From: Trichodelitschia bisporula
Taxonomy: Eukaryota
Direction of reading: 5' to 3'
NCBI GenBank assembly: GCA_010356995.1
Contig: ML996692.1
Location: 1,127,933-1,191,932, forward strand
DNA: 64,000 bases
The position numbers and the translations under genes are program-made. How positions within the stretch are numbered: the stretch's first letter is position 1; every line of letters begins with the position of its first letter. This document shows positions 28,906 to 30,943 of the stretch, one piece after another. A model generated the notes under the pieces. The model had not been told where the DNA came from, searched no databases, and saw only the letters and a program-made list of their open reading frames with translations.

Positions 28906-29927
28906 TCAAAGCTCTGCCACATGTCCCCCCACCCACCGCTGAATCGCCCTAAAATCCCTACACACATGCCTCGCACTAAACTCTGCCCTCCTCCCCAGCA
29001 CACTCCCTCCATCCTCCAGTATCATAACCGGCGTCACATCCCCATGGCACATGAGCGTCAGCCTAAGCGTCTCAATACAATGATCAATATGCATGCGATT
29101 TGCAACTCTATTCGTCCTAAAATCATGCGGGATGTGCACGCCCTCGGTGTCCTCGTCATTCGGATTATAATTCCCGCTCTGCAGCCACGTGTACTGCCTA
29201 ATGCGGTTCTAGAAGCCGTGGGTTAGGGGTGTTGCACGGGTTCAGGGAGTGGGGCGCGGGGGCTTACCAGACAGTGCAGCTGGTGGAAGACTTCGAGCAG
29301 CGCCGCATATCCGCCGGACGGGAGACGGCGCAGCTTGGAGCTGGTATGGTTTGTGGGCACCCGGTTCGCGGGTATTTCAACTGCGTGCTCTGCATCTGTT
29401 AGCTTCGATATGTTCAGATAGCCACCCGACTTACGGAACACGAGCTCGTCCCATAGCGCTTCGCGCTCTGGCGTCGGCGGGCCCCGGTAGGGCGACTTCT
29501 GGCCGAAGGAATTCGCGAAGTCGTATTCTATGTACCGAACGGCGGGGAGGGCGGGGGCTGGAGGCGTCAGTAGGAGTCTGGCGCGGGAGAGCGGGTGGGT
29601 TGGAGAGTTTTAGGGAGAGGGCGGGGAAGACATACACCACAGCGACGTCCTCGCGGCGCAGGCCTCATCGCTTGGTCGACGGAGGGCGAGAAACAAATTC
29701 ACCGCCGAAGCCACGAAGAGTACGGCGCAAAGGGGGAGGGCGTAGCGTGCGCAGAACGACAGGCGGGCATAGTTGGTAGGCGAGGTATCATCGCGGATGT
29801 GTGACGTCTTCTCATCAGCCAGCAGCCGCTCAGCTTGCTCTTCGTCTGTGTATCCGCGCCCGCGAGGAAACCGTGGAGAGGCGACGTCGGCATCTTGGTC
29901 CGACGGGGTCCGGGGGGCGAAGGGCAT
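28906..29927 (-). CDS. DUF3328 / UstYa-family oxidase (two HxxHC motifs), N-terminal TM anchor
   Basis: Four exons (introns 29558-29635, 29390-29434, 29209-29267) give a TM helix, WSPA, SPYRGPPTPEREALWDEL, EVFHQLHCL|NRIRQ, HIDHCIETLRLTLMCHGDVTP and RHVCRDFRAIQRW. Confidence 0.93.
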
Positions 29928-30699
29928 TGCTGAAGTGAGACTGATGGGAAGGCACGAATGCGGGGTACGAACCATTACGCGTGGAGTTCCGGAGGGTGAG
30001 CAGTTAAGGCGCTGGCGCCAGCGTGGCGAGACCAAGGCATTGCCCGTGGGATGTGCTAGGTCGGATACGGGCCCGACCGTACCAAGCCAGATCCGAGGAG
30101 CCTCACGATGCCGCTAAGGGCTATAATGCCATATACATGATTCCTAATGCGGGGCACGGGCCTGTTGGATCGCCCGATGCGGGGGTGGGTCACGTTGGGG
30201 CTGCGTGCTGCCCTAGTGACGGCCAAAAAGACTACTGAGAATATCAGTTTTGAGAAATGCTTGAGGGGGCGTAGAAGGGTGGCACACCTCGCTGACAAGA
30301 AAGAAAGGAGGATGTGCTGCGAGGGTTCAGCGAGGCTGAGGACATCCCGTGTAATCCACCGTTACCATCCACTCCCAGCCAATCACCCCACAGGGCACCC
30401 TTCGGCCTCGATCCGCGGAGTGCGGGAGTGTAATCTAGACGACAGGAGAAGCGGGGAGGTTCGCGGTTTTTACAGGTCAGAGCACGGTGGGCATGATTCG
30501 CTTCGGCCAGGTTACTGGAAGGGTGCTGATGTGGGCTGCAGGGGCGCGTTGCGACGCTTCACGTATATTAGGGTCCTGGCCGCGTGTAAATGCAGTGTTG
30601 TGGTTCATAATAGAATGTGCCCTTAGTTTGTGTCGTCTGTCGCTTATAATTTTTTTTTGCACAACGAATCCACGTACTTTGCTTTATCTGGATGACAGG

Positions 30700-30943
30700 A
30701 TGAAGTTGTGGTGCATTCTTTACCTTTGCGTTGCGGTCAGCGTTGCGGTGCCGGTGGCGAGAGAGAGTACGGTCGAGGATGTGATGCGGAAGCTGGACGC
30801 ATTTGGCGTCGCGCTCGGAGCGTATACGGAGATCATCAAAGCTGCTGATCCGGCGGAAGTGCTTGGGAAGACGTATCCAGGTCAGTCGCTCGATGATTTC
30901 GTTCAGTTCAACGCTCACATTGACAGCCTCGTCGTACAATTGA
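30700..30943 (+). CDS. Small secreted peptide (65 aa spliced; 85 aa to 30957 if unspliced), candidate RiPP precursor
   Basis: TATAAT about 55 bp upstream; signal peptide MKLWCILYLCVAVSVA-VPVA; 46-nt intron 30881-30926 (CAG|GTCAGT...GCTCAC...CAG) gives the C-terminus ...LGKTYPASSYN*. Confidence 0.6.

Follow-up and report, generated by a model that had tools for sequence, protein, structure and literature searches.

A spliced small-peptide gene head-to-head with a UstYa oxidase gene in Trichodelitschia bisporula: a candidate one-unit relative of DUF3328-linked repeat precursors

The macrocycles of ustiloxin, phomopsin, asperipin and epichloecyclin are products of fungal UstYa/DUF3328 enzymes. 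To our knowledge, their substrates have been found almost only through searches for repeat proteins cut by Kex2, and many DUF3328 genes have no repeat precursor as a neighbour. A 64,000-nucleotide stretch of the Trichodelitschia bisporula genome (GenBank assembly GCA_010356995.1, contig ML996692.1, positions 1,127,933 to 1,191,932 of the forward strand; hereafter the window, with positions counted from its first letter) raises the question of what such an enzyme might act on where repeats are absent. In this window a UstYa/DUF3328 oxidase gene lies head-to-head with a small gene for a 65-residue peptide. A first-pass annotation, made from the sequence alone, proposed that the two may be a dikaritin-like system with a single core at the C-terminus of the peptide. 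All the elements that it described are present, and the peptide does appear to be related to repeat precursors encoded near DUF3328 genes. However, what it has in common with them is an acidic module upstream of the supposed core. We regard it as an even question whether the peptide is a reduced, single-unit UstYa substrate in which this module, and not the tail, is the conserved element.

The UstYa gene and the peptide gene are both transcribed and both spliced. The evidence comes from two RNA runs (X1 and X2) of one sample in one study, from which splice joints can be read but not levels, strand or ends. Both runs are labelled 'RNA?' on the record, yet their contigs carry splice joints. Compared over positions 26000-34000, each run yielded one contig across the pair (28391-32319 in X1 and 28625-32305 in X2), and all three introns of the UstYa coding sequence (CDS) are removed in both, at the joints listed in Table 1. 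The resulting four-exon model on the minus strand is the one proposed in the first-pass annotation and corresponds to a deposited 279-amino-acid (aa) hypothetical protein of T. bisporula (P0008), with 100% identity across exon 4. The annotated ATG is at 29927; the sequence and the list of open reading frames (ORFs) also hold an in-frame ATG 16 codons upstream. Pfam recognizes UstYa (PF11807) in exon 4 at 5.2e-18 and in the ORF containing exons 2 and 3 at 5.4e-14, that is, at 66.1 and 53 bits against a curated cut-off of 25. The motifs HQLHC (residues 174-178) and HIDHC (residues 219-223) are invariant in all five UstYa proteins aligned. [quoted passage not shown] A hydrophobic stretch at about residues 58-83 coincides with a helix (residues 50-82) in an AlphaFold2 (AF2) model whose mean predicted local distance difference test (pLDDT) score is only 65.1. 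By tBLASTn, this is the only UstYa gene in the window. Its best database relatives share 50% identity with exon 4 in a word-based search that was not exhaustive, and a protein of the lichen fungus Toensbergia (P0010) is among the closest found. A profile of five UstYa proteins run against PDB sequences returned only chance-level matches to influenza HA2 (best E 0.0065), and no solved structural relative of UstYa was found by this sequence search.

The peptide gene lies on the plus strand, with its ATG at 30700 and its stop codon at 30941-30943. Its C-terminus depends on a splice that the first-pass annotation had predicted from the sequence, and the RNA bears the prediction out: contigs from both runs lack the 46-nt GT..AG intron (joint 30877/30924, ambiguous by 3 letters), and the spliced frame of 65 codons, confirmed by script, ends in the tail TYPASSYN. 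The product starts with Met-Lys, 18 mostly hydrophobic residues and then Arg-Glu, and looks secreted; the signal peptide claimed earlier stands to the extent that this start is hydrophobic, as judged by eye only. The spliced 65-residue product contains no KR or RR, one RK (residues 30-31), a single Lys at position 57 and no internal repeat. As the first-pass annotation had it, the peptide is therefore a single unit that repeat-based mining would miss. The gene is apparently unannotated, since no matching deposited protein was found by a word-index search or by an exact look-up of the unspliced 85-aa form in a collection of 15 billion proteins. The possibility that the unspliced ORF begins a longer, HsbA-like secreted protein was rejected, as the 85-aa form has no Pfam family and no plus-strand joint lies between 30924 and 31468.

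A HMMER search with the peptide against 1.84 billion representative sequences gave four matches at E <= 0.001. The only small secreted protein among them is P0004 (E 2e-4), a 141-aa hypothetical protein of Xylaria grammica, which is 61% identical to the peptide over query residues 37-58, matches in three stretches and shares ten consecutive residues with it. The other three (P0001-P0003) score higher; they are long repeat proteins, apparently unrelated, whose scores sum many weak stretches, and they were set aside as repeat-inflated matches. P0004 has three relatives of its own, namely P0005 (X. grammica), P0006 (Xylariales sp. No.14919) and P0007 (Nemania sp.). All four proteins have a signal-peptide-like start and two to three copies of a unit, with KR or RR after the internal copies, and each unit contains a hydrophobic segment and a module of the form AYDEDI-x-AADPAEVLG. 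Placement of P0004 in the ESM Atlas gave 0.79-0.84, below the bar of 0.9; one row is an alpha-factor precursor cluster, which serves as a lead only.

The window peptide contains exactly one such module, which aligns in ungapped register with 11 other copies from these relatives and from the metagenome locus described below. The family pattern can be written as AYxxxIxAADPAEVLG(K), an acidic element of 16-17 residues, or more broadly as AY-x3-[IV]-x-AA-x-P-x-EV-L-G. Tyr42 of the window peptide occupies a position that is invariant in 12 of 12 copies and is the sole Tyr conserved across the family. When a profile was built from the 11 other copies, with the window excluded, and run against the window in six frames, only the peptide ORF matched (E 1.9e-4; next best 8.9). 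The local alignment spans module positions 6-16, and the Ala-Tyr start is aligned by the ungapped register. The same profile found no second, decayed module downstream of the first. The window module ends in L-G-K followed by Thr, where its relatives continue with Arg to give L-x-K-R. Past the Leu-Gly, P0004 and P0006 end after one residue, and P0007 and the metagenome precursor after four; P0005 has ten further residues after KR and no module following. In three of P0004-P0007 the module is the last element of the protein, and in all four, copies and species agree more closely in the module than in the hydrophobic segments that would usually be taken for cores.

The same pattern was sought in metagenomes. 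A scan led by P0004 (alignment A2) confirmed 1 of 198 pattern matches, at a locus that we call L001. Its precursor gene has two exons and encodes a signal peptide, a variant first unit, five 20-residue units ending in KR or QR, and a unit carrying the module, which is followed by KRRD. Tyr is absent from all five repeat units. A Pfam scan of the 74 ORFs of at least 75 aa at this locus identified a UstYa gene (7849-8907) on the opposite strand to the precursor and head-to-head with it, 744 bp from ATG to ATG, as well as a Zn2Cys6 regulator (5169-7389) and a second UstYa gene (2704-3444), all within 7 kb. The two UstYa proteins share 48% and 50% identity with exon 4 of the window gene, which is the level of the best database relatives found. 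The UstYa gene adjoining the precursor appears to be interrupted where the window gene has intron 1, after a conserved Trp; this is read from a stop soon after the aligned Trp in the read-through translation and not from RNA. The window and L001 modules agree at 12 of 17 residues, and different codons are used for 9 of these, which points to selection on the peptide over a long time and not to a recent transfer. As a whole, L001 looks like a complete dikaritin-like cluster (2704-10207), for which literature searches with the motif strings found no paper. Genes for an enoyl-CoA hydratase, a MaoC protein and an AtuA-like protein lie downstream.

The link to DUF3328 extends to one of the Xylariales proteins. 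P0005 is RWA05193.1, which is listed in Table S2 of Umemura 2020 among the Kex2-processed repeat proteins (KEPs), as type 0 (stand-alone) with 'DUF3328 in vicinity', meaning within 15 genes (PMC7329392). A DUF3328 gene is thus found near a module-bearing precursor at each of the three assessable loci (the window, L001 and P0005). For comparison, the same source gives a DUF3328 gene nearby for 22% of KEP genes, the adjacent position having the highest count (PMC7329392). P0004-P0007 and the L001 precursor are secreted repeat proteins with Kex2 sites and so belong to the KEPs as defined; the window peptide does not.

These observations suggest that the window peptide, with its one unit, descends from or is related to a small family of Kex2-cut repeat precursors linked to DUF3328, and it is plausible that the pair constitutes a minimal peptide natural-product system. 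The peptide would enter the endoplasmic reticulum (ER) through its signal peptide. There, the catalytic domain of UstYa with its two HxxHC motifs, predicted to lie in the ER/Golgi lumen, could recognize or modify it at or beside the module. For a tyrosine cross-link of the UstYa type, the best candidate would be Tyr42, since no other Tyr is conserved across the family. Kex2, which releases the relatives, would not free the window peptide, given its lack of KR and RR, and the secreted product would then be a mature peptide of about 45 residues or a fragment cut by another protease. A broader form of this reading, which we hold only tentatively and think rather doubtful, is that the module is a portable follower, that is, a recognition element, or else the Tyr-cross-linked product, of one UstYa subfamily, kept in both Dothideomycetes and Sordariomycetes. 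The window pair would then be its minimal natural form, a lone oxidase with a single-unit substrate, lacking both Kex2 release and accessory genes.

Several points weigh against a reduced UstYa substrate. With one unit, no repeats and no KR or RR, the peptide fails two defining features of dikaritin and KEP precursors. Its link to the relatives rests on one short module; the higher scores of P0001-P0003 indicate that repeats inflate the phmmer E-values obtained with this query, and a word-index search with region 1-60 of the peptide among proteins of 46-149 aa returned no match. A metagenome scan led by the window peptide itself (alignment A1) confirmed 0 of 198 pattern matches. The neighbourhood of DUF3328 was assessed at three of six family loci (not at P0004, P0006 or P0007), and for P0005 it is known only as 'within 15 genes'. 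The lack of Tyr in the repeat units of L001 means that a Tyr-centred mechanism is not general. The RNA data are contigs and thus provide no measure of co-expression, and DUF3328 proteins also act in non-ribosomal pathways, according to the part of the source available (PMC12048977).

The first-pass annotation had placed the product elsewhere, with TYPASSYN after Lys57 as a single core, its tyrosines or their neighbours linked by the oxidase and everything upstream serving as leader. The splice that creates this tail is real, and the tail begins right after L-G-K(R), where the relatives start their next unit and where P0005 ends in a 10-residue unit. It also carries two Tyr, and the UstYa products described in the accessible parts of two sources use Tyr cross-links (PMC6514808, PMC9233826). 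The comparison with the relatives nevertheless makes this improbable. TYPASSYN and its Y-x4-Y spacing occur in the window peptide and in none of the five relatives, of which P0004, P0006, P0007 and the L001 precursor end 1-4 residues past the Leu-Gly, and Lys57 is followed by Thr, so that no KR or RR is available to free the tail. Nor do the other features on which that proposal drew hold up: the acidic STVED motif is conserved in none of the five relatives, the RK once read as a processing site would place Lys at P1, unlike the KR and RR used in the relatives, and the region before the tail, formerly taken for a spacer, holds the conserved module with its invariant Tyr. Even less support exists for the view that the small ORF has no gene product at all and that its transcript is a non-coding or antisense RNA of a divergent promoter, similar to the precursors by chance. 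One contig merges spliced transcripts of both strands, so transcription here overlaps densely, and the ORF has no Pfam family. Against this, the RNA shows removal of a GT..AG intron on the plus strand, a single frame holds the ATG, the signal-peptide-like start and the module with its ten consecutive residues in common with P0004, and the spliced product ends soon past the module, as its relatives do. We consider this reading very improbable indeed.

A more serious competitor is that the peptide is secreted unmodified or is the decaying remnant of a repeat precursor, with UstYa acting elsewhere or on nothing and the module being a pro-region. In its favour are the lack of repeats and of KR or RR, and the regulator and second UstYa gene seen at L001 were not found near the window pair, nor was a transporter. 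In addition, a DUF3328 gene is missing from the vicinity of 78% of KEP genes (Umemura 2020, PMC7329392), and the module of the relatives ends in the L-x-K-R pattern described as a kexin recognition site of GigA, in the portion of that study available (PMC10540207), from which the window peptide has lost the Arg. Against it stand an intact frame, apparent signal peptide and module, a spliced mRNA, and a module kept at the protein level though its codons differ. The head-to-head UstYa layout also recurs in L001 at nearly equal spacing, and a generic pro-region would be expected in many proteins, whereas the module was found in one representative cluster among 1.84 billion. We therefore judge this alternative unlikely, though clearly less so than a tail core. 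A repeat precursor reduced to one unit would still be a useful case if the oxidase leaves it untouched. The pair offers an expressed, non-repetitive candidate tied by homology to repeat precursors beside UstYa genes, and provides a testable two-gene system. The module could serve as a search handle for non-repetitive UstYa substrates, and its conservation hints at selection on part of what had passed for spacer in these precursors. If the module does prove portable, UstYa substrates could be mined by module instead of by repeats, and the window pair would offer the simplest setting for working out what a UstYa enzyme recognizes and which bond it makes.

Table 1. Positions of the UstYa gene, the peptide gene and the gap between them in the 64,000-nucleotide window.
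Feature	Positions	Strand	Details
UstYa CDS exon 4	28906..29208	-	100 codons and stop; HIDHC; RNA piece ends at 29208; equals P0008 residues 180-279
UstYa intron 3	29209..29267	-	59 nt; joint 29208/29268, CT..AC on the plus strand, both runs
UstYa CDS exon 3	29268..29389	-	HQLHC at its end; RNA contig piece and P0008 model
UstYa intron 2	29390..29434	-	45 nt; joint 29389/29435, both runs
UstYa CDS exon 2	29435..29557	-	RNA contig piece; Pfam UstYa 5.4e-14 on ORF 29223-29609
UstYa intron 1	29558..29635	-	78 nt; joint 29557/29636
UstYa CDS exon 1	29636..29927	-	Predicted cytosolic N-terminal tail and membrane anchor; P0008, ORF list, AF2 helix 50-82
Divergent gap, ATG to ATG	29928..30699	.	772 bp; RNA contigs cover all but the spliced intron of the untranslated region (UTR)
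UstYa 5'UTR intron	30232..30287	-	Joints 30231/30288 and 30234/30288, CT..AC
TATAA followed by a T-run	30645..30649	+	From the sequence; 51 nt ahead of the peptide ATG
Peptide gene exon 1	30700..30880	+	60 codons and 1 nt; RNA contig piece 30288-30877
Layout of peptide exon 1			Residues 1-20 signal-peptide-like, acidic stretch, RK 30-31, module
Conserved module AYTEIIKAADPAEVLGK	30820..30870	+	Residues 41-57; common to Xylariales repeat precursors and the L001 precursor
Peptide gene intron	30881..30926	+	46 nt; GT..AG at cut +3, both runs
Peptide gene exon 2 CDS	30927..30943	+	Completes an Ala codon, then Ser-Ser-Tyr-Asn, TGA

The coordinates in Table 1 reproduce the 772-bp divergent gap and the TATA box before the small ORF that the first-pass annotation described. 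It missed an intron of the UstYa 5'UTR inside this 'intergenic' region, which has tandem acceptors 3 nt apart (30235 in X1 and 30232 in X2). Because the intron extends to 30287, transcription of UstYa must begin past 30288, which leaves less than about 410 nt to the peptide ATG, so that the two divergent transcripts either overlap or have starts no more than about 410 nt apart. Such close starts are compatible with shared control, without proving it.

On either side, the pair is an isolated two-gene unit amid housekeeping genes. The Pfam scans took in 18 of the 82 ORFs of at least 110 aa between 14000 and 46000, and, elsewhere in the window, 42 of the 70 ORFs of at least 130 aa, with shorter ORFs overlapping longer ones omitted; genes made of short exons may escape scans of these larger ORFs. 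The families recognized were Upf2, thiolase, GH47, P450, Munc13-like, KH, Myb, rhodanese, HAD, a BSP peptidase (19 kb away), CLASP and RhoGAP. As stated in the first-pass annotation, no tyrosinase or transporter is present among the larger ORFs scanned, and neither is a methyltransferase, a regulator, a second UstYa gene, or a kexB-like or SET-domain gene.

Directly downstream of the UstYa gene, and on its strand, is a GH47 alpha-mannosidase gene (26498-28408, minus strand; Pfam 4.6e-144), and the UstYa RNA contig, reaching 28391, overlaps the 5'-end of the long open frame that holds it. Beyond the peptide gene, a spliced minus-strand transcript at 31000-32319 (intron 31469-31518, joint 31468/31519) is convergent with it and is merged into the same RNA contig. 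The ORFs of this transcript (30993-31388, 31764-32141 and 31990-32331) have no Pfam family, and the transcript could come from an unannotated gene or be non-coding. About 2 kb downstream is a three-exon cytochrome P450 gene on the plus strand (about 32750-34588, introns 32912-32964 and 33116-33159, main exon 33161-34585). Its protein is placed at 0.99 beside P450 clusters of the ESM Atlas, one of which is named as a sterol 22-desaturase family, and its contig has a depth of about 1358 compared with 99 for the UstYa/peptide contig (about 14-fold), a measure that cannot rank genes. This P450 was considered as a tailoring enzyme and rejected; given its sterol 22-desaturase-like placement and contig depth, we read it as a housekeeping gene of the ergosterol pathway, a character that the first-pass annotation had also overlooked.

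The pair resembles dikaritin and KEP systems in layout, and the peptide lacks the repeats and KR sites of their precursors. In the dikaritin pathways (UstA/UstYa/UstYb, phomopsin and AprA/AprY), a DUF3328 gene with two HxxHC motifs likewise stands beside a small gene, whose product has a signal peptide where that of the window has a signal-peptide-like start. The asperipin-2a cluster is similarly small, with four genes and a single DUF3328 enzyme, which is needed (PMC6514808). Dikaritin precursors differ in carrying 8 to 16 repeated cores with ED and KR flanks, as described in the accessible part of the same source, for example the 16 YAIG cores of UstA and the eight repeats of PhomA (PMC6514808), compared with one unit and no KR or RR in the window. 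The tyrosinase, methyltransferase, transporter and regulator of these pathways were not found near the window pair among the larger ORFs scanned; later definitions of such clusters treat these accessory genes as optional. The epichloecyclin system (GigA, the DUF3328 protein GigB, GigC and KexB) also needs its DUF3328 protein, and cyclization proceeds through a conserved Tyr (PMC10540207). According to the part of that study available, the units of GigA consist of a core, a follower and an LXKR kexin site, and gigA-like genes with a single repeat occur in Aciculosporium take (PMC10540207). The window peptide has L-G-K-T, without the Arg of L-x-K-R, and is likened to GigA by description and not by sequence.

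The closest counterparts are the RWA05193.1-type KEPs and the L001 precursor, which, like the window peptide, have a signal-peptide-like start and a module with an Ala-Tyr start and AADPxEVLG at or near the C-terminus, and have a DUF3328 gene nearby that in L001 is also head-to-head. The Xylariales precursors contain two to three modules, and the L001 precursor contains a variant first unit, five further units and one module, all separated by KR or RR. In the window peptide there is a single module, KT stands where they have KR, the N-terminal part differs, and the 8-residue tail is one that none of them has. The intron of the precursor gene follows the signal peptide in L001 and lies near the 3'-end in the window. 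The motif strings of the module led to no relevant paper among open-access full texts and are absent from three supplements of Umemura 2020. No characterized single-core DUF3328 RiPP was found in the open-access literature searched; acalitide is made by a different, non-DUF3328 pathway (PMC10840396). Lichens have DUF3328 clans with HxxHC motifs and without repeated cores, for which the authors raise a possible single-core precursor; no such precursor is identified in the part of that source available (PMC12048977), whereas the window provides a specific, expressed candidate that is homologous to repeat precursors. The idea of single-core UstYa substrates is thus already in the air, and the T. 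bisporula pair is a concrete, expressed and easily tested candidate for one.

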